Shown here in pieces: positions 8,426 to 28,444 of a stretch of 42,428 nucleotides of DNA; the first letter of the stretch is position 1, and every line of letters begins with the position of its first letter. The translations under genes and the position numbers were made by a program. Below the pieces are notes generated by a model that saw only the letters and a list, made by a program, of their open reading frames with translations, did no database searches and was not told the origin of the DNA. Source of the DNA: Nitrospinota bacterium (lineage in GTDB: Bacteria > Nitrospinota > Nitrospinia > UBA9942 > JAHJSF01); the NCBI GenBank assembly GCA_018830405.1, contig JAHJSF010000046.1:1-42428 (forward strand), written 5' to 3'.

Positions 8426-8579
8426 TATGCAAAGTTGTATTCAAAATGATAACAAGGCGGCAAGGAGGAAGCGACTCACAACCCCCTTATTCCCCCTTAA
8501 TAAAGGGGGATAGGGGGTTGTATGTCGAGGAGCTGACGACGAAGCCAACGCAGTTAGCGGTTGAAAGCGACTTTGCATA
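8426..8579. repeat. ~154-bp nested palindrome in the divergent lnt/hemE spacer
   Basis: The outer arms tatgcaaagt (8426-8435) and actttgcata (8570-8579) are perfectly complementary. They are concentric with the inner hairpin acaaccccc..tccccctt-aat-aaaggggga..gggggttgt (8478-8523). Confidence 0.75.
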
Positions 8580-8661: not shown

Positions 8662-9702
8662 GTGACGAAAATCAAGAACGACAACTTTTTAAGGGCCTGC
8701 CGTAGAGAGGCTACCGATTACACCCCAATCTGGCTTATGCGCCAAGCCGGTCGCTATATGGCCGAGTATAGAAAACTGAGGGAGAAGGCCGATTTTCTAA
8801 CCATGTGTAAAACCCCGGAGCTGGCCGCCGAGGTTACCATGCAGCCGATAAACCGTTTCGATCTCGACGCCGCCATAATATTTGCCGATATCCTCCTCCC
8901 GGTTGAGGGGATGGGGATAAACCTTGAGTTTAAAGAGAAGACCGGCCCGATAATCCATAACCCGGTCAGGAACAGAAAGGATATCGATGCGCTCAGAATA
9001 ATAGATGCGGAGCGGGATGTTCCCTATCTCTCCAAGGCGATATCTTTAGTTAAGCAAGAACTTAACAATAAAATCCCACTTATCGGCTTCTCCTCCGCCC
9101 CATTTACCCTGGCAAGTTATATGATTGAAGGGGGGCATTCGAGGAACTATCTTGAAACGAAGCAGATGTTCTACAACGAGCCTGAGATGTGGAACGACTT
9201 GATGACTAAGATAGTCGATGTTCTTATTATCTCCCTAAAGGCGCAGGTTGAAGCCGGGGTTGATGTTTTACAGCTATTCGATAGTTGGGTTGGATGTCTC
9301 TCAACAGGTGACTATAGAGAATATGTCCTCCCTCATTCCAAGAGGCTTATCGATTCAGTTAAAGGGGAGGGGCTACCGATTATCCATTTCGGCACCGACA
9401 CCGCCACACTCCTAACATCAATGAAAGAGGCGGGGGGAGATGTTATCGGGGCCGACTGGAGGATAAACCTTGATGAGGCCTGGAAGATGATAGGGGATGA
9501 TGTAGGAATACAGGGGAACATAGACCCACTCATTCTCTTCTCTAACCAGAAAGAGATAGAGAAGAGGGTCAAAGACATTTTGAATAGAGCCGAGGGGAGA
9601 CCCGGGCATATATTCAACCTTGGTCATGGAATACTTCCAAAAACCCCGATCGATAATGTCGCCTTCCTCATAGATACTGTCCACAACCTGAGCCGAAAAT
9701 GA
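8662..9702 (+). CDS. hemE: Uroporphyrinogen decarboxylase
   Basis: It has the signature 'PIWLMRQAGRYMAEYR' and is 346 aa long. It uses a GTG start with AGGAAG 5 nt upstream. Confidence 0.95.
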   Translation: MTKIKNDNFLRACRREATDYTPIWLMRQAGRYMAEYRKLREKADFLTMCKTPELAAEVTMQPINRFDLDAAIIFADILLPVEGMGINLEFKEKTGPIIHNPVRNRKDIDALRIIDAERDVPYLSKAISLVKQELNNKIPLIGFSSAPFTLASYMIEGGHSRNYLETKQMFYNEPEMWNDLMTKIVDVLIISLKAQVEAGVDVLQLFDSWVGCLSTGDYREYVLPHSKRLIDSVKGEGLPIIHFGTDTATLLTSMKEAGGDVIGADWRINLDEAWKMIGDDVGIQGNIDPLILFSNQKEIEKRVKDILNRAEGRPGHIFNLGHGILPKTPIDNVAFLIDTVHNLSRK

Positions 9703-10622: not shown

Positions 10623-12022
10623 AGCAGATTGCAATTGTAGGTGGAGGGATATCAGGGTTAGCCGCCGCCAACGCCCTTGAAAAGAGAGCCGCCGAACAGA
10701 ACATTCCTATCAAGATAACTATTATCGAAAGAGCCAATCGTATCGGGGGGAATATCTCTACCGAAGATTACAATGGCTTCAAAATTGAAGGGGGTCCCGA
10801 TTCCTTCTTCTCCCCAAAACCTGCCGCAATTAAACTGGCTATCGAACTTGGGCTCACAGATTCTCTCCTAAATACCAACAGCGAGAAGAAGGGGATATCT
10901 GTCTATCACAAGAAGAGATTACACAATATTCCGGATGGGGTTATCCTCCTAAACCGCTCGATGATTAAACCTCTCCTCTTCGGTTCCCTAATGTCAATCA
11001 GAGGGAAGCTGAGAATGGCCCTCGAACCTTTTATTCCTAAGAAGAATGATGGTGAGGATGAATCTCTGGCCAACTTTATCCGAAGAAGGGTAGGGGGAGA
11101 ATTTCTCTATAAGATTACCGAACCGCTCCTGGCCGGCATTCACGCCGGAAACGCCGAGACGATGTCTATCCGCTCAACCTTCCCCCAATTTGTTCAGTTG
11201 GAGGAAGAGTATGGGAGTATCACCAGGGCCATCTTTTCCCCAAAAAGAAGCGATGCCGGAGGAAAGCGTTCTTCTTCATATACCCCTTTCGTAACCTTAA
11301 AGGACGGGATGAAACAACTCCCCGAAGCGATTGTGAGCAAACTTAAAGATACAGAGATAAACCTTAATATTGAGGTTGAGAAAATATCTGAGACAGGAAG
11401 CGGATATAAAATATCGGCTAAAGGGGGGAAAGAGGTTGAGGCCGATGTGGTTATCATCACCACCCCTGCCTACTCCGCCGCCGACATGCTTGAAGAGACA
11501 GATGCTGAATTGGACGCTAAACTTAGAGAGATTAATTACGCCTCCACCGCAACCATTACCCTCGCCTACCCGAAAGAAAAGATAGACCAATCTTTCATGA
11601 AAGGTTTCGGAATAATTATTCCGAGAAGCGGGGATAACCTAATAAAGGCGATTACCATAACATCTAATAAATTTTTTCACCGCGCTCCTGATGGCGCACT
11701 TCTTATTAGGGTATTTGTAGGGGGAGGGGGGGATGATAAAATTCTTTCCCTTAGCGACTCTGACATCATGCAAAAGGTCAGAGAAGAATTGAAAAGTATA
11801 ATGGGGATAGCCGAAGAACCTCTCTTAAATAGAATTAATAGGTGGAATAATGTCTGGCCTCAATATGAGGTAGGGCATAAGAAGAGGGTTGATAGAATAG
11901 AAGAAATTGTCTCAAAACATAAAGGACTCTACCTGACCGGAGCGGCCTATCGGGGAATTGGGATAGCCGACTCGGTTTTGAACTCGGACAAGATTGCGGA
12001 ACAAATTCTTTCCTTAAAATAA
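10619..12022 (+). CDS. hemY: HemY-type FAD-dependent protoporphyrinogen/coproporphyrinogen oxidase
   Basis: It has the N-terminal dinucleotide fold 'IAIVGGGISGLAAA', 'GGPDSF' and a C-terminal 'LYLTGAAYRGIGI'. It is the third gene of a hemE-hemH-hemY cluster. Confidence 0.88.
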   Translation: MKQIAIVGGGISGLAAANALEKRAAEQNIPIKITIIERANRIGGNISTEDYNGFKIEGGPDSFFSPKPAAIKLAIELGLTDSLLNTNSEKKGISVYHKKRLHNIPDGVILLNRSMIKPLLFGSLMSIRGKLRMALEPFIPKKNDGEDESLANFIRRRVGGEFLYKITEPLLAGIHAGNAETMSIRSTFPQFVQLEEEYGSITRAIFSPKRSDAGGKRSSSYTPFVTLKDGMKQLPEAIVSKLKDTEINLNIEVEKISETGSGYKISAKGGKEVEADVVIITTPAYSAADMLEETDAELDAKLREINYASTATITLAYPKEKIDQSFMKGFGIIIPRSGDNLIKAITITSNKFFHRAPDGALLIRVFVGGGGDDKILSLSDSDIMQKVREELKSIMGIAEEPLLNRINRWNNVWPQYEVGHKKRVDRIEEIVSKHKGLYLTGAAYRGIGIADSVLNSDKIAEQILSLK

Positions 12023-12025
12023 ATC

Positions 12026-12051
12026 TCCTCTCCCTTGAGGGGAGAGGATTT
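12026..12051 (+). terminator. Hairpin directly after the hemY stop (9-bp GC-rich stem, 5-nt loop, short T run)
   Basis: The sequence is tcctctccc-ttgag-gggagagga followed by ttt. It is also a member of the 'ctcccttgaggggag' repeat family seen at 18.99-19.08 kb. Confidence 0.45.
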
Positions 12052-12250
12052 AAGGTGAGGGCGGAATTTTAGCCCTGTCATTCCCGTGAAAACGGGAATC
12101 CATGAATTTGAATATTTTCTTCTTCATTTCTTGCTCGTCCAAGAAACGAAGCAAAGAAGGACGGTCTGCTCATTTTTTAAACGGCTTGAAATAACGGTTG
12201 GTCTCGGAGCCTAAAGAACTCGCAAGGCTATGCCTTGCTCAGACATGCTT

Positions 12251-12301
12251 TAGGCTTTTTCCCTCAACCGACCTATTCCAATCCTAAAAATGAGATGGCG
12301 G
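12251..12301. repeat. Intergenic repeat family C ('ggcttt.ccctcaacc.acctatt.caa.cctaaa.aatga.atggcgg')
   Basis: It is near-identical to 28468-28519. The 3' half ('cctaaaaatcaaatggcg') recurs at 18965-18985 and 19093-19113. Confidence 0.85.
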
Positions 12302-12414
12302 GGATTGAAGATAGGTAGGCTTCAGATTATTTATCTATCTTTTTCAATACAGTAGATAGTGTTATATTTGATGGGTAATTATTAGGTCTTTAATCTCAAT
12401 TATGGGAGATTTCC

Positions 12415-13812
12415 GTGCACCTTCACCTTAGCGACTTAGATGAGCTCTATCAGAGTGTCCGTAATACAAAATCAAAGAAATATCTACAAGAAGCTATTTC
12501 CTCTTACCGAGCCGGGGCTTATAGGTCGGCAATCATAACTACATGGATAGCAGTTTGTGTGGATATTATAGAAAAAATAGCGGAGCTTGGAATCAGTGGT
12601 GATACTGCAGCAAAAGAAATATACGGTAGACTACAAAATATATCAGCAAATAATGTCAGTGAAATGCTCTCGTTTGAGAAGGGAATATTAGATTACGCTT
12701 GTGATAAGCTTGAGTTGATATCTTTTATCGAGAAAGCTCATCTTCAAAGGTTGAATGATGACAGAAACATTTGTGCCCATCCTACATTTTCTGAAGATGG
12801 TAGTCAATTTAGCCCATCGCCTGAGTTAGCAAGAGCCTACATTGTACAAGCATCAAACTACTTGCTTATACAAGTCCCCGTTAAAGGTAAGGTGGCGATA
12901 GACCGTACATATAATGTTATCACAGAAGAATCATTCCCTCAGAATGAAGAGCTGGCTTTCGATGTACTTTCATCTGGTAATTATTTGGGGCGAGTACGAG
13001 ATAGTGTCATAAGAAATTTAACTATAATTTTAATAAAAAGATTGTTCCTAGATAATGAATCTATTGCCAAACCTATGTTTAATAGGATATCTGCTGCTCT
13101 AGGAGCCATCAGTAGAATTAATGGGCAAGCCTATAAAGAAGTTCTTAAAGAAAAATTAAGTCCAATGCTGGTCGATGCGGGCGATAAAAAGCTTAAGCGT
13201 ATATTTCCTTTCCTCATCAATCGAGTTGAGGCATGGGATAATATAGAAAAAGCAGACAAAATAAGAATAGTAGTCCTAATAGAGTCAATGACTGTTGAAG
13301 AGTTGATTAAGTATAATATCCCTAGCTTGGCTAACATCAATAAAGATATAAATCCAGCTCTCCAATCTCGGATTGGAACTTTAGATCAACTTGCAATCAG
13401 GAAGTTTTTAGAGTCGGTTCCGACATCTCAGGTGCTTAAAAAATACGCTTTGAACCTATTTATATCATCTGGAAGCTTTGATGCAACTTACGGGATTGGA
13501 ACAAAAATTCTTGTGCCTTATTGTAAGTACTTTAATGAAGAGGATGTTATTTTACTTTTCGATGGAATATATAAAAATAGCTCATGGGATATAAATCAAA
13601 TACTAAACGCAGGAGGCATAGATCAAATATTGTCTGAGCTTTACATTGGCACAAAAAGCAATATAAACGAACACGGAAAAACTTGGATGGAATTCTGGAG
13701 CAACGTCAAGGCGACGGGTCATGATTATCCAACCTTAAAGACTCGTTTTATTGAAGACAAATTATTAGACGAAGTTGTTGAAGACTTTGATGCAGATAAT
13801 ATCCCCTTTTGA
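12415..13812 (+). CDS. Hypothetical protein with an N-terminal HEPN-like domain (R-N-x3-H) and a ~300-aa uncharacterised helical C-terminal region
   Basis: It uses a GTG start with GGGAGA 5 nt upstream. The N-terminal helix 'YLQEAISSYRAGAYRSAIITTWIAVCVDIIEKI' is followed by 'LNDDRNICAHP' (R117..H122, nt 12763-12780) and then 'ELARAYIVQASNYLL'. This is the layout of Swt1-/DUF4145-/Abi-type HEPN domains. The gene is strongly AT-rich compared with its neighbours. Confidence 0.55.
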   Translation: MHLHLSDLDELYQSVRNTKSKKYLQEAISSYRAGAYRSAIITTWIAVCVDIIEKIAELGISGDTAAKEIYGRLQNISANNVSEMLSFEKGILDYACDKLELISFIEKAHLQRLNDDRNICAHPTFSEDGSQFSPSPELARAYIVQASNYLLIQVPVKGKVAIDRTYNVITEESFPQNEELAFDVLSSGNYLGRVRDSVIRNLTIILIKRLFLDNESIAKPMFNRISAALGAISRINGQAYKEVLKEKLSPMLVDAGDKKLKRIFPFLINRVEAWDNIEKADKIRIVVLIESMTVEELIKYNIPSLANINKDINPALQSRIGTLDQLAIRKFLESVPTSQVLKKYALNLFISSGSFDATYGIGTKILVPYCKYFNEEDVILLFDGIYKNSSWDINQILNAGGIDQILSELYIGTKSNINEHGKTWMEFWSNVKATGHDYPTLKTRFIEDKLLDEVVEDFDADNIPF

Positions 13813-13920
13813 GTAGGGCTAGGGTCACCTGTCGAGGGTCGATGGTCAGGTCTATAATGTTTATATCCTTGGAAACCACATAGATTCCGCATCAAGTGCG
13901 GAAGGACAAGAGGTATATTT

Positions 13921-13970
13921 TTTTCGTGTCTTTTGTGTGTTTCGTGGTTAAAAACCTCGGCAGTTAAGCC
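13921..13970. repeat. Intergenic repeat family E ('gtgtgtttcgYggttaa ... cctcggcRgttaa')
   Basis: The sequence is ttttcgtgtcttttgtgtgtttcgtggttaaaaacctcggcagttaagcc. It is homologous to 17469-17527. Confidence 0.8.
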
Positions 13971-13985
13971 ATTTTAATGTCAATC

Positions 13986-14162
13986 CTAAATTAGCCCATC
14001 GGATTTCAGTTTAGCTTTGAGTTTATCAAAACTGATTGTCGGTTCATTTTTTCTTTCTTCAAAAACAGCCAAATCATGTATGTCTTCTTTCGTCAACTTG
14101 CCATGATTTTGAACGACACATTTCTTCTTGCCCGATTCATCAGCTATAATTTTTTTGCTCAT
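13986..14162 (-). CDS. Small hypothetical protein, antitoxin-like C-terminus (orphan)
   Basis: The 58-62 aa ORF contains 'KEDIHDLAVFEERKNEPTISFDKLKAKL', which resembles the C-terminal tails of Phd/YefM- or RelB-type antitoxins. The start is ambiguous (TTG 14174, GTG 14168 or ATG 14162), and there is no clear SD and no toxin partner. Confidence 0.3.
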   Translation of the reverse strand: MSKKIIADESGKKKCVVQNHGKLTKEDIHDLAVFEERKNEPTISFDKLKAKLKSDGLI

Positions 14163-14276
14163 AGTCACACTCAAACATGAAATAACTTTTTGGAGACAAT
14201 AAAGCCCTTGTTTATTAAGCTATTATATCTTCAAGACTAACATAATATTAGGGATTACTTCTATAGGGAATTAATC

Positions 14277-14366
14277 TCAGTGCCTCAGCGTTTTATATGT
14301 TTCAAATCCCTCCCAACCTCCCTTTTCTAAAGGGAGGTTTTTAGAGGTGTCCTCGGCGGTTAATAA
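14277..14366. repeat. Composite repeat: family-E 3' part interrupted by a 'cctccc..gggagg' hairpin
   Basis: The layout is ctcagtgcctcagcgtt ... cctcccttttctaaagggagg ... gtcctcggcggttaataa. The last 18 nt are identical to 17509-17526. Confidence 0.75.
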
Positions 14367-14369
14367 TGT

Positions 14370-14600
14370 TTAATCCTTATGGTACTCGCTTAAACAATGC
14401 CTACAACCGTTATATCCATCTTCTTCGAGGGCTTTCTTTGCTTCCTCTAATGTATAGAAGAGTACCTTATCATCTTCTTTCATCTGCCAGATTTGGCAGG
14501 CGTAGAGACTGTTCATAAGGTGGTGTATCTCTTTTGTTTTTACATTGCCGACGTATTCAACCTTCCTGACCGGCTCCTCTTCTTCTCCTATGACTGACAT
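14370..14600 (-). CDS. Small Ada-like metal-binding-domain protein
   Basis: The ATG at 14600 has GAGGAG 6 nt upstream. 'KEIHHLMNSLYACQ...VLFYTLEEAKKALEEDGYNGCRHC' fits the pattern 'H...C...(F)xSxxEAxxxGYxxCxxC' of Ada N-terminal-like zinc-binding small proteins. Confidence 0.5.
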   Translation of the reverse strand: MSVIGEEEEPVRKVEYVGNVKTKEIHHLMNSLYACQIWQMKEDDKVLFYTLEEAKKALEEDGYNGCRHCLSEYHKD

Positions 14601-14778
14601 TACGTTCTCCTCATTAAAAGTTAACGATGAAACAATCACTGATCCTAATTCTATTGTAAAAACCTCTGTTTTAAAAGCAAATATAGGTTATCCTATAAGA
14701 GTAAGTTTGCTTATAGAAAAGGCGTTATAGATAATGTTATAGGCCTGATAATCAATGCTGTAATTAGAGGCCGTAAAA

Positions 14779-15360
14779 ATGGAAATTATCAAAAATGTTG
14801 CGCCGCCGGTTCCTGATGAGCTGATGCAAAAGGCCCAGGAGCTGTATGACTATATAGAGAAGTCGTCTGATACCCCCCTCAAAAAGCTATCCCATATATA
14901 TGATTACCTGACGGAATTTTCAATCTTTGCGCAGACATTTTCGAAATGTTCTAAGGGGTGTTCGGCCTGTTGCGCTTACGGGGTGAGTATTACCACCTTT
15001 GAGGCAGAATATATTTCCCTCAAAACGGGAATAGAATATAGCCGGGAGACTGTATTTGCAAAAAATGATAATGCCGATTGTCCTTTCCTTGGGAATAGTG
15101 GTGAGTGCTCTATCTATGATTGCCGGCCTATAATTTGTTGGATGGTTCACACCCTGGGTGACCCTAAAAATTGTGAAATTGGTGTTGGGGAAAACCAGGT
15201 TTGGTACGGGTCTCAAGGCGCCAATTTCAGCAATTCCGTTTATAGTGAACTTATTCAGTTGATTAATATTCAAAACCTTTTATTGGGTGGAGATGTGAGG
15301 GATATAAGATTCTTTTTCCCCTACGATAATTTGTCTCTGCCAAAGTCTCTCCTTTTCTGA
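14779..15360 (+). CDS. YkgJ-family cysteine-cluster protein (putative Zn/Fe-chelating domain)
   Basis: It has 'CSKGCSACC' followed by 'CPFLGNSGECSIYDCRPIICW', the hallmark Cys pattern of the YkgJ/UPF0153 family. Confidence 0.75.
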   Translation: MEIIKNVAPPVPDELMQKAQELYDYIEKSSDTPLKKLSHIYDYLTEFSIFAQTFSKCSKGCSACCAYGVSITTFEAEYISLKTGIEYSRETVFAKNDNADCPFLGNSGECSIYDCRPIICWMVHTLGDPKNCEIGVGENQVWYGSQGANFSNSVYSELIQLINIQNLLLGGDVRDIRFFFPYDNLSLPKSLLF

Positions 15361-15452
15361 ATATCCTTGCCGATGTCCCCTTTATCTAATATTATGTATC
15401 TTCTATTAAACTTAAAAACAAACAGTTAGATGGCATAACTGTAAAGATAAAA

Positions 15453-16412
15453 ATGGATATTATCTACAATAAAATATTTCTTGAGCATAATACGGGGAAT
15501 CATCCTGAGAGTATTCAGCGCCTCCTCTCGTTTGGCGAGCTTGAGGAGACCGAGATTCCGAGTGGTGAGGAATATCTGGGGCTTATCCATTCGAGGGAAT
15601 ATGTTGATTCGGTTAAGGCGGCCTGCAAGGTTGGCGGATATATGGATGCCGATACAGTTGTTTCGGCGAGGAGTTATGAGGCGGCTATATATGGGGTGGG
15701 TGCGGCGGTGATGGCCTCCGAAACAAATGGCTTTGCCCTTGTTCGTCCTCCGGGGCATCACGGCTTTCCAAATAAATCGAGCGGTTTCTGCATCTTCAAT
15801 AATATTGCCATCGCCTCCAAGAGGTTGGTTGATATGGGGAAGAGGGTCTTTATTCTCGATTTTGACGGCCATCTTGGAGACGGAACAGAGCACTGTTTCT
15901 ACAATTCGGATAAGGTCTTATATTGGTCGCTCCACCAGTCGCATGCCTTTCCCGGGGGGGGCGACGTTGTGGAGATTGGAGAGGGGGCAGGGAAGGGCTA
16001 TACGATAAATATCACTTTATTTGCCGGTGCCGGTGACGACATCTATATGAGGGCCGTAGACGATTTTATGACCATCGCTGAGCAGTTTAAACCTGATGTG
16101 GTAGCCGTCTCGGCCGGTTTTGACGCTCATCAGAGCGATTTTCTCCTTGACCTTAGGCTGAGCCTTGATACCTATTATAAGATTGGCAAAATATTACGGG
16201 AGCGGTTCGACAATATATTTGCCGTCCTTGAAGGGGGCTACAATACAGATTTTCTCTCTAAGGGGGTCTACAATTTTATAGATGGGATAAATGGGGAGAA
16301 GATGAGGTTTAGAGAGAAGGAAACCGAGTCTAAGATATCAATCATCGAGCAGTATCATCACTATACGGCGCAGCATCTTAAGGAACTGCTTTCACCGTAC
16401 TGGTCTCTCTAG
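15453..16412 (+). CDS. Zn-dependent histone-deacetylase-family amidohydrolase (AcuC/APAH-like)
   Basis: It has 'RPPGHH', 'GFCIFNN', 'DFDGHLGDGT', 'SAGFDAH' and 'LEGGY'. All Zn ligands and the catalytic His pair and Tyr appear to be retained. Confidence 0.9.
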   Translation: MDIIYNKIFLEHNTGNHPESIQRLLSFGELEETEIPSGEEYLGLIHSREYVDSVKAACKVGGYMDADTVVSARSYEAAIYGVGAAVMASETNGFALVRPPGHHGFPNKSSGFCIFNNIAIASKRLVDMGKRVFILDFDGHLGDGTEHCFYNSDKVLYWSLHQSHAFPGGGDVVEIGEGAGKGYTINITLFAGAGDDIYMRAVDDFMTIAEQFKPDVVAVSAGFDAHQSDFLLDLRLSLDTYYKIGKILRERFDNIFAVLEGGYNTDFLSKGVYNFIDGINGEKMRFREKETESKISIIEQYHHYTAQHLKELLSPYWSL

Positions 16413-16414
16413 GT

Positions 16415-16534
16415 ACAGAGCGGCATAAATTTGTATCCCTTTGTTACTCCTTGCCTCGTCGTTACGACGTATGCCTAATACGCCTCACTCCTCACCTTCG
16501 TTGCGCCTCGGCCTACTTCTTTCTCCCGCTCTTG
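16415..16534. repeat. ~120-bp structured repeat, copy 1 (Rep-A)
   Basis: By eye it aligns over its full length with 28324-28444, with only scattered mismatches. It starts 3 nt after the HDAC-family gene stop. Confidence 0.85.
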
Positions 16535-18964: not shown

Positions 18965-19113
18965 AACCCTAAAAATCAAATGGCGAACTAACTTCTCCCC
19001 TCCCTTGAGGGGAGGGGACTAAGGGGAGGGTGAATTAATTGTCCCCCCTCACCCCACCCCTCTCCCGCTAGGGGAGAGGGAGTTGTTGAGAAAGCCTAAA
19101 AATCAAATGGCGG
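18965..19113. repeat. Composite repeat block: two family-C 3' halves bracketing three 'ctccc..gggag' hairpins
   Basis: The block reads aaccctaaaaatcaaatggcg ... ctcccctcccttgaggggagggg ... cccctctcccgctaggggagaggg ... agcctaaaaatcaaatggcgg. Confidence 0.8.
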
Positions 19114-28337: not shown

Positions 28338-28444
28338 ATTCGTATACCTTTGTTGCTCCTTGGCTCATCGTTACGGCGTACGCTAAAAGTACGCCTCACT
28401 CCTCGCCTTTGTCGAGCCTCGGCCTACTTTTTTCTGCCGTTCTG
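28324..28444. repeat. ~120-bp structured repeat, copy 2 (Rep-A)
   Basis: See 16415-16534. This copy supplies the last 4 codons and the stop of galU. Confidence 0.85.

Follow-up and report, generated by a model that had tools for sequence, protein, structure and literature searches.

The locus analysed here is an open reading frame of 465 amino acids at positions 12415..13812 on the forward strand of a 42,428-nucleotide stretch of DNA from a Nitrospinota bacterium, which was analysed as a whole and is referred to as the window. The reading frame begins with GTG, and its coordinates include the stop codon. Within the first 60 codons the only alternative in-frame start is the GTG at 12559, the start chosen in a single public gene call (P0001, 417 aa), for which an exact-match look-up returned no record. 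We prefer the start at 12415 because of the N-termini of homologues, which share the consensus MxLHLSDLDEL; moreover, the 465-aa length was also called in an independent ENA assembly. A Shine-Dalgarno-like GGGAGA lies 5 nt 5' of this GTG, as had been read in an earlier inspection of the letters of the stretch (the sequence-only reading), which gave the gene its own Shine-Dalgarno sequence and GTG start. A promoter-like site on the same strand (12341..12368, TTTTCA-16-TATATT with a TG extension) precedes the start by about 47 nt and matches the consensus, but such sites are no commoner in this region than in shuffles, and we list it only as a candidate promoter.

The rest of the window is housekeeping chromosome, with recA, ribD, lnt, hemEHY, lon, and accC, and it contains no tRNA genes. 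The G+C content of the gene is 0.366, compared with 0.460 for the window and 0.447 and 0.451 for hemH and hemY, in agreement with the earlier impression that it is AT-rich relative to its neighbors. It lies in a low-GC stretch that spans approximately 12.0 to 15.4 kb. Just 3' of the hemY stop codon, a palindromic hairpin (12024..12055), a copy of a dispersed element with 84% identity to 18994-19025, likely forms the boundary between the haem operon and this low-GC stretch. A second flanking hairpin, with G/C tracts, is located at 14302-14337 and has a family copy at 2520-2555. The gene had been described as sitting between repeat-laden spacers; palindromic hairpins do flank it, but their families are dispersed through the window rather than particular to this locus. 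Besides these palindromes, the repeats detected near the gene were all short and at chance level, and an Rfam scan of 11500-15500 gave no match.

Two small unannotated open reading frames are found downstream on the reverse strand, both convergent to the gene: one of 62 aa (13986-14174) and one of 89 aa that contains Cys and His residues and has no Pfam match (14370-14639). Neither had a counterpart at 23 homologue loci searched with tblastn. An Ada_Zn_binding gene beside the Marinobacter homologue, taken together with the 89-aa frame, was considered as a conserved partner and rejected, as no tblastn match, Pfam match, or neighbor cluster connected them. A PADLOC scan of the neighbors in the window found no other defence gene beside 12415-13812, and neither the list of reading frames in the window nor the annotated neighbors contained an overlapping partner or an MNT gene, in line with the sequence-only reading. 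Across 17 homologue loci, no neighbor within ±4 kb was conserved, and the flanks differed at every locus. The gene is thus a single-gene unit with no obligatory partner.

PADLOC, one of the checks suggested beforehand, assigned the protein to PD-T7-3 (PDLC04108) with an E-value of 7.5e-36 and 122 bits, aligning residues 7-389 with positions 5-393 of the 432-position profile (90% of the profile). PD-T7-3 was discovered in a 2022 functional screen in E. coli and was experimentally validated (PMC9519451); it was renamed DARNA, as an RNase activated by single-stranded DNA, in a 2026 preprint (bioRxiv 10.64898/2026.02.22.705581). Comparison with E. coli DARNA by hhalign gave a probability of 98.6% (E = 9e-16, 363 columns), and BLASTP against this prototype gave E = 6e-13 over 421 aa, at an identity of 19-21%. 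Structures of the prototype are available as well. PDB entry 9wxf, a 12-chain assembly named 'Dandelion', has E. coli DARNA residues at an offset of +5, and over the HEPN segment it shows 100% identity with P2-EC30 ORF1 (CAD54896.1) read from M17. A profile of the close clade matched 9wxf at E = 2e-20, with positions 1-390 aligned to residues 6-409 of the chain and both domains covered, while the window protein alone matched the solved structures 9wx2 and 9wxf at E of about 1e-13. The family comprises 1,786 clusters at 50% identity (E ≤ 1e-3). Judged by these alignments, the gene is a divergent relative of DARNA (PD-T7-3), a known family of single-protein antiviral systems. Its status as a defence gene is therefore genuine, but the system is already described. 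The sequence-only reading had put the locus forward as its best candidate for an undescribed system, a proposal superseded by the validation in 2022, the inclusion of PD-T7-3 in PADLOC since 2023, and the mechanism and structure of 2026. Nothing relevant emerged from the literature on a defence system called 'Dandelion' or on 'AF_1680', a Pfam family that returns below.

The prototype has been characterized in molecular detail. [quoted passage not shown] One gene suffices for the system, and loop 81-85 of the protein itself, not an antitoxin, keeps the RNase inactive. A 'CT' dinucleotide is recognized by F368, D372, N402, Q403, Y405, W406, and N408, and the W406A mutation abolishes function (all bioRxiv 10.64898/2026.02.22.705581).

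The N-terminal part of the window protein (about aa 1-160; 12415..12900, forward strand) is an HEPN RNase domain by its match to the solved 'Dandelion-hepn' structure 9wx2 (phmmer, E = 4e-13, aa 7-153) and by a domain model. Its predicted catalytic motif, R117-N-I-C-A-H122, is encoded at 12763..12780 on the forward strand, exactly where the sequence-only reading had placed an R-N-x3-H motif, and it is the sole Rx4-6H in the protein. In shuffles of the protein, Rx4H arose in 23%, Rx4-6H in 55%, and RNx3H in 1.5% of cases, and the bare Rx4-6H motif is therefore not beyond chance. Its significance comes from homology: R117 is present in 254 and H122 in 255 of the 255 members of the family alignment, and the intact dyad aligns with R117 and H122 of E. 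coli DARNA. R117A and H122A had been suggested as mutants before this relationship was recognized; the numbers are the same in E. coli DARNA, in which R117/H122 is the named catalytic pair and H122A was made.

Structure prediction agreed with the HEPN layout first proposed for this region. An AF2 model of the HEPN domain alone had a pLDDT of 87 and a pTM of 0.83, and the best Foldseek matches of this model in the PDB were the HEPN proteins 2hsb, 2q00, 5yep, 1wol, 9bj7, 1o3u, and 1ufb, with target-normalized TM scores of 0.4-0.65 yet weak E-values (at least 0.059). Together, the domain model and the HEPN-dominated list support a predicted HEPN helical-bundle fold. The Pfam scan, which included the HEPN-clan models, returned no family at E ≤ 10 from a copy lacking PF27235; NCBIfam gave no match, and PHROGs gave marginal matches only (best E = 0.01). 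PF27235 ('AF_1680') itself shows a weak precomputed match to the close clade and to the window protein.

The remaining approximately 300 aa (about aa 163-465; 12901..13809, forward strand) form an all-α solenoid domain, presumed to be the ssDNA sensor, as delineated by AF2 and the DARNA alignment. In the full-length AF2 model this part is all-helical, with pLDDT mostly above 90 over residues 161-450, and Foldseek searches of the full-length model gave weak ARM/HEAT/PUF α-solenoid matches in the PDB (entries to 2026-04-08, hence without 9wxf; E ≥ 0.011) and nothing meaningful in BFVD. The impression of helical repeats from the letters was thus sound, but the accompanying view that this part matches nothing was not, as PADLOC, hhalign, and 9wxf all align it with the C-terminal domain of DARNA. 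In sequence, it aligns to DARNA residues 160-402, whereas the last ~75 residues of the window protein are unaligned. By model and alignment, then, the predicted HEPN domain is followed by an α-solenoid, as in DARNA.

The predicted ssDNA pocket is partly retained. F355 (nt 13477-13479, forward strand), the equivalent of DARNA F368, occupies a position that is aromatic in 251 of 255 family members, and N394-Q395 (nt 13594-13599, forward strand) are the equivalents of N402/Q403, with Q at the second position in 228 of 255. The alignment of this stretch hinges on a 5-residue gap, and the hhalign alignment ends at residue 389/402. Other pocket residues are not conserved (D372 to Y359, Y405 to L397, W406 to N398, and N408 to G400). 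Outside the pocket, K201/K204 of the RNA patch are replaced by N201/I204, and the inter-hexamer interface residues F6/N33 by S6/A33, with E347 opposite a gap, a comparison of residue identity only. Because several residues essential in E. coli are unconserved and the tail of ~75 residues is unaligned, the window protein should not be presumed to have the CT-dinucleotide specificity, the dodecameric assembly, or the tRNA-binding patch of the prototype.

Homologues of about 50% identity have a patchy distribution that takes in Anaerolineae, many gammaproteobacterial orders, Ca. Electronema, and Rickettsiales. A search with two peptide patterns found the close clade in 15 of 185,579 species-representative genomes, across phyla. 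Its members are 'hypothetical proteins' of ~465 aa with 45-57% identity, from marine Gammaproteobacteria, Anaerolineae, and Ca. Electronema, and like the window protein they are encoded by lone genes and align over the full length from residue 1, with E26, Y31, R32, W44, D50, H122, N394, Q395, W424, and F427 invariant. The nearest non-identical relative is, however, only 57% identical. Homologues are surrounded by integrase, IS91, or IS110 genes, by Phd-YoeB pairs or HNH genes, or are lone insertions amid core genes, and their differing flanks at all 17 loci speak against core genes in conserved housekeeping contexts, which would have counted against a defence role. An empty junction between hemY and the CxxCxxCC gene was not found, as the GTDB representatives lack a close hemY relative and the JGI metagenome relatives are 31-32% identical. 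Together, low GC, patchy taxa, and mobile-element contexts support the horizontal acquisition proposed by the sequence-only reading, with insertion here resting on composition and patchy distribution.

Compared with E. coli DARNA, the window protein is of similar size (465 versus 455 aa), carries the HEPN dyad R117-x4-H122 under the same residue numbers and, behind this domain, an α-solenoid of ~300 aa, is homologous over ~390 residues, and, as aligned, keeps the aromatic and the N-Q pair of the putative pocket; both are single genes on accessory DNA. The two differ in their ssDNA contacts, RNA patch, and interface residues and in the unrelated ~75-aa tail, and while the E. coli gene lies in a P2 prophage hotspot (ORF1 of the P2-EC30 Z-region), the window gene lies in the low-GC stretch after hemY. 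AbiV, HepT/MntA, the HEPN domains of Csm6/Csx1, ApeA, PD-T4-2, and PD-T4-5 resemble it in the HEPN bundle, the dimer-spanning Rx4-6H, and growth arrest through RNA cleavage, but have no detectable sequence similarity beyond the HEPN core. They are regulated by an MNT antitoxin, by cyclic oligoadenylate/CARF, or by other means, and none has the DARNA solenoid.

On this basis, we consider it probable (about 85%) that this is a gene for a stand-alone DARNA-family effector of anti-phage abortive infection, with a mechanism like that of the prototype. The sequence-only reading had also favored a single-gene abortive-infection or defence effector, and the prototype, with the same architecture and that function, makes this plausible by analogy. 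The N-terminal HEPN domains would dimerize to form composite R117/H122 active sites that stay closed in uninfected cells. During phage replication, phage SSB would replace host SSB and expose ssDNA, whose bases the C-terminal α-solenoid would bind, switching on the RNase. The RNase would then cut host tRNA anticodon loops, so that translation stops and the infection is aborted. The tRNA target, the ssDNA/SSB trigger, any higher-order oligomer, and the abortive-infection phenotype are carried over from the E. coli prototype only, whereas membership in the family, the two domains, the intact dyad, the partly retained putative pocket, the lone gene, and its patchy, accessory distribution come from the present analysis.

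Could the protein share the DARNA fold and yet have diverged in function, responding to another cue (a different base motif, RNA, or a nucleic-acid/protein complex) or differing in assembly or RNA target? The identity of ~20%, the replacement of D372, W406, Y405, and N408, the unalignable C-terminal ~75 aa, and the invariant W424 and F427 specific to the clade all point in this direction, as do the changes in dodecamer-interface and RNA-patch residues and the weak match to PF27235 as a separate Pfam family. Interface residues, however, commonly vary at such distances, and their loss says little; overall length and domain order are those of DARNA, and the family-wide retention of the thymine-reading Q, the adjoining N, and the stacking F argues for the same nucleobase pocket. 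We regard such divergence as possible but rather unlikely.

HEPN RNases in many cases serve as toxins whose partner is MNT or another antitoxin, and HepT/MntA structures appeared in the Foldseek list. With two small unannotated reading frames downstream, the protein might be the toxin of an unrecognized toxin-antitoxin pair, with the 62-aa or the 89-aa product as antitoxin. Yet these frames are convergent to the gene, so they would not be co-transcribed with it, and they lack counterparts at the 23 homologue loci, just as the 17 loci share no neighbor and no MNT or nucleotidyltransferase gene lies nearby; the E. coli prototype, for its part, works alone under the restraint of loop 81-85. This makes a toxin-antitoxin pair highly improbable. 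Equally slight is the chance that the gene encodes a housekeeping RNA-processing enzyme or is a non-functional remnant with no defence role. Its place directly after the haem-biosynthesis operon, in a core chromosomal segment with no recognized defence genes adjoining, would suit such a role, but the scattered occurrence of the close clade in the search with two peptide patterns, the variable flanks, and the foreign composition do not, and the reading frame is full-length with its catalytic residues intact, in a family whose prototype is a validated defence gene. The reading as a DARNA-family effector thus stays preferred.

As the gene is already labelled PD-T7-3 by PADLOC, the finding is an ordinary one, and its value is comparative: the window protein stands far from the sole characterized member of the family. 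The 255-sequence alignment separates features that are family-wide (the R/H dyad, the stacking aromatic, and the N-Q pair) from those specific to E. coli (W406, D372, and the interface and RNA-patch residues), and this split may guide tests of how far ssDNA sensing and CT specificity extend across the family. The family spreads across phyla as a lone gene, often amid housekeeping genes and not in defence islands, a setting that fits the original observation that the system escaped island-based discovery. Tentatively, and against the odds as we see them, the residues that set the ~465-aa clade apart could mark a functionally distinct DARNA subtype with another nucleic-acid signature or assembly; if so, the C-terminal solenoid would be an evolvable sensor module.

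The candidate gene occupies positions 12415-13812 on the forward strand and encodes a 465-aa protein from a GTG start, with a GGGAGA element 5 nt upstream. A public JGI call of the same gene (417 aa, 100% identical) begins at an internal GTG at 12559, so that its product is 48 residues shorter at the N-terminus and lacks HEPN helix 1. The N-termini of homologues align with the window protein from residue 1 (consensus MxLHLSDLDEL), and the ENA gene call from an independent assembly is also 465 aa long; therefore, 12415 rather than 12559 is the right start. An ORF listing of the window contained no ORF overlapping or translationally coupled to the gene. We thus recovered all the gene features described in the sequence-only reading, namely the GTG start, the Shine-Dalgarno element, the RNICAH motif at nt 12763-12780 and the lack of an overlapping partner. 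The gene is also AT-richer than its neighbours, as had been noticed by eye: its G+C content is 36.6%, as opposed to 46.0% for the window and 44.7% and 45.1% for the upstream hemH and hemY, and the low-GC stretch spans ~12.0 to 15.4 kb.

Searches of the window protein against NCBIfam and a Pfam copy lacking PF27235 gave no match; its clade weakly matches that family, Pfam PF27235 'AF_1680'. The PADLOC library returned a single strong, near-full-length match, PD-T7-3 (E=7.5e-36; protein 7-389, profile 5-393 of 432). A sequence search of the PDB matched the N-terminal ~150 residues to 9wx2 'Dandelion-hepn' and 9wxf 'Dandelion' (460 aa, 12 chains) at E~1e-13, and a profile of the protein's own clade aligned positions 1-390 with residues 6-409 of the 9wxf chain (E=2e-20). 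We found that N38, K74, R103, R122 and H127 of the Dandelion chain correspond, with an offset of +5, to N33, K69, R98, R117 and H122 of DARNA. Moreover, the HEPN segment of Dandelion matches, at 100% identity, ORF1 in the Z-region of the P2-like coliphage P2-EC30 (AJ512676.1), which opens MDVRIF when read from M17, in agreement with DARNA F6. Based on the offset, the identical segment and this start, Dandelion, DARNA and PD-T7-3 are three names for a single E. coli protein. In the GenBank version, P2-EC30 ORF1 (364-1779, 471 aa) has its start 16 codons before M17, and the 9wxf chain carries 5 additional N-terminal residues relative to the M17 start. Direct comparison with DARNA gave 21% identity over 421 aa by BLASTP (E=6e-13) and a probability of 98.6% by hhalign over 363 columns (window residues 8-389, DARNA 8-402), and the window protein is thus a distant homologue of E. 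coli DARNA.

A functional selection covering 71 E. coli strains yielded PD-T7-3, which protects against T7 and, more strongly, T-even phages (PMC9519451); a 2023 review places it among HEPN-containing systems (PMC10952713). It was renamed DARNA in a February 2026 preprint, which describes a D2 dodecamer made of HEPN dimers, promiscuous anticodon-loop cleavage of most tRNAs and an abortive-infection phenotype (bioRxiv 10.64898/2026.02.22.705581). The activator is ssDNA that is at least ~30 nt long and contains several CT motifs; its bases are read by F368, D372, N402, Q403, Y405, W406 and N408 of the distal C-domain; in all structures obtained, the active site is occluded by loop 81-85 (bioRxiv 10.64898/2026.02.22.705581). 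E. coli SSB inhibits DARNA, and the phage SSBs T7 gp2.5, T4 gp32 and T5 D11 favour its activation through displacement of host SSB; H122A, F368A, W406A, R98E, R98E+K201E+K204E and F6A+N33A+E347A are loss-of-function mutations (bioRxiv 10.64898/2026.02.22.705581). The proposal that the window gene represents an undescribed system therefore does not stand, as it belongs to a family whose phenotype has been known from experiment since 2022, which PADLOC has modelled since 2023, and for which 2026 brought a mechanism and structures. The family is already known, and we classify the gene as a divergent, newly recognised member.

RNICAH (residues 117-122) is the sole Rx4-6H motif of the protein. Shuffles of the window protein produced Rx4H in 23%, Rx4-6H in 55% and RNx3H in 1.5% of cases, so that the bare HEPN motif, taken alone, is within chance, and its significance comes from homology. 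In a family alignment of 255 sequences that includes E. coli DARNA and is weighted by its collection to relatives of the window protein, the catalytic residues R117 and H122, which carry the same numbers in both proteins, are R in 254 and H in 255 sequences. The ssDNA-contacting F368, N402 and Q403 of DARNA correspond to F355 (aromatic in 251/255), N394 (N in 157/255) and Q395 (Q in 228/255). The other four ssDNA positions are not conserved, D372, Y405, W406 and N408 being replaced by Y359, L397, N398 and G400. The same holds for the RNA-contacting K69 (E68, with K67 adjacent), K201 (N201), K204 (I204) and R98 (K98, still basic, at a position where E and D are commonest in the family), as well as for the dodecamer residues F6 (S6), N33 (A33) and E347 (a gap). 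The last ~75 residues, in which W424 and F427 are invariant within the clade, do not align with DARNA.

The full-length AF2 model (pLDDT 84.2, pTM 0.61) is all-helical, with pLDDT >90 across most of residues 161-450. Foldseek searches with this model against a PDB library predating 9wxf gave weak ARM/HEAT/PUF solenoid matches only (E>=0.011), which agree with the Pds5-like description of the prototype's C-domain. Residues 1-167 modelled alone gave a confident model (pLDDT 87, pTM 0.83), whose best PDB matches, none at E<=0.001, were mainly HEPN proteins: 2hsb AF_0298 (probability 1.00, TMt 0.60), 2q00 (TMt 0.65), 5yep, 1wol, AbiV 9bj7, 1o3u, sacsin 3o10, HepT 6m6w/7bxo and 1ufb. The original suggestion of a HEPN RNase effector acting through R117/H122 was correct in kind, residue numbers included.

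The family is large, with 1,786 matching clusters at 50% identity when the cutoff is E<=1e-3, of which 565 remain at E<=1e-30. The closest non-identical relatives of the window protein share just 57% identity, and when 185,579 genomes, each representing a species, were scanned with a limited set of patterns, 15 carried the close clade, among them an Anaerolineae MAG, many gammaproteobacterial orders, Ca. Electronema and a Rickettsiales MAG. The surroundings differ at each locus. The Vibrio atlanticus homologue lies between integrase/IS91 and IS110, and that of a gammaproteobacterial MAG adjoins a DDE transposase. The Cellvibrionaceae homologue sits in an integrase-bounded stretch with IS110, HNH and a Phd-YoeB pair, and a tyrosine-recombinase gene belongs to the locus; the Marinobacter one has small ORFs, HNH and Phd-YoeB beside it and a transposase fragment in its locus. 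Both homologues lie in runs of many short unannotated ORFs (Cellvibrionaceae L007/L008, 168-13070; Marinobacter L005, 8879-18602), an arrangement reminiscent of a chromosomal integron cassette array or a small mobile island. The Ca. Electronema and Pseudoalteromonas homologues are lone genes amid housekeeping genes. In Ca. Electronema, genes for an AAA_15/AAA_21 ATPase and, after it, a DUF4276 protein (L004, 16142-18381) lie ~5 kb from the homologue, and farther upstream come an NB-ARC/TPR STAND NTPase and a PIN/RHH toxin-antitoxin pair; that genome thus has other defence-type genes nearby.

Within the window, hemE-hemH-hemY precede the gene, and behind it lie two small unannotated opposite-strand ORFs in the low-GC stretch, then genes for a CxxCxxCC protein and a member of the histone-deacetylase family. 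The small ORFs (13986-14174, 62 aa; 14370-14639, 89 aa, with a Cys/His-rich end GCRHCLSEYH) gave no Pfam or PADLOC match and have no counterpart at any homologue locus. Core chromosomal genes such as recA, ribD, lnt, lon and accC make up the remainder of the window; PADLOC found no defence gene among the window neighbours, no tRNA gene is present in the window, and no Rfam match lies near the locus. Its composition and phyletic patchiness suggest that the gene was horizontally acquired.

The flanking spacers contain G/C-tract palindromic hairpins (12024-12055 and 14302-14337), and the early description of them as repeat-laden holds to that extent. Copies at 18994-19025 and 2520-2555 indicate a dispersed host element that is not tied to the gene. 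Intergenic spacers of the window hold families of such hairpins (e.g. TCTCCTCTCCCTTGAGGGGAGAGGA, CCCCC...GGGGG), with members at 12024-12055, 18994-19025 and 8892-8923; at 2396-2444 and 8476-8524; and at 2520-2555 and 14302-14337. The two members of one 49-nt pair are 94% complementary. These families resemble dispersed elements, REP-like or terminator-like, of the host genome. Two copies of a 54-nt direct repeat (87% identical) lie ~12 kb apart, one after the HDAC-family gene (16479-16532) and one after the nucleotidyl-transferase gene (28390-28443).

The best reading, to which we assign a probability of about 0.85, is that the gene encodes a stand-alone abortive-infection effector of the DARNA type. 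We established that the protein belongs to the family, shares its domain architecture, keeps the catalytic dyad intact and the pocket in part, and is the product of a single, accessory gene; RNA target, trigger, oligomer and phenotype are extrapolated from the E. coli protein only. By analogy, HEPN dimers would build R117/H122 active sites, which autoinhibition would keep silent as long as the cell is uninfected; the C-terminal solenoid would bind exposed ssDNA bases through a pocket including F355, N394 and Q395, and this binding would license host tRNA cleavage and translation arrest.

The main rival reading keeps the protein in the DARNA family but supposes a divergence of its clade in ligand specificity, assembly or target; the missing W406, D372 and interface residues and the different C-terminal tail speak for it, and we consider it possible though rather unlikely. 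When all ORFs within +-4 kb were clustered across 17 loci, no neighbour was common to more than pairs of loci. The absence of a conserved partner and the patchy distribution make it very improbable that the gene is half of a toxin-antitoxin pair, and equally so that it is a housekeeping gene or remnant. The gene is useful as a distant comparator for recognising which features of DARNA are general.
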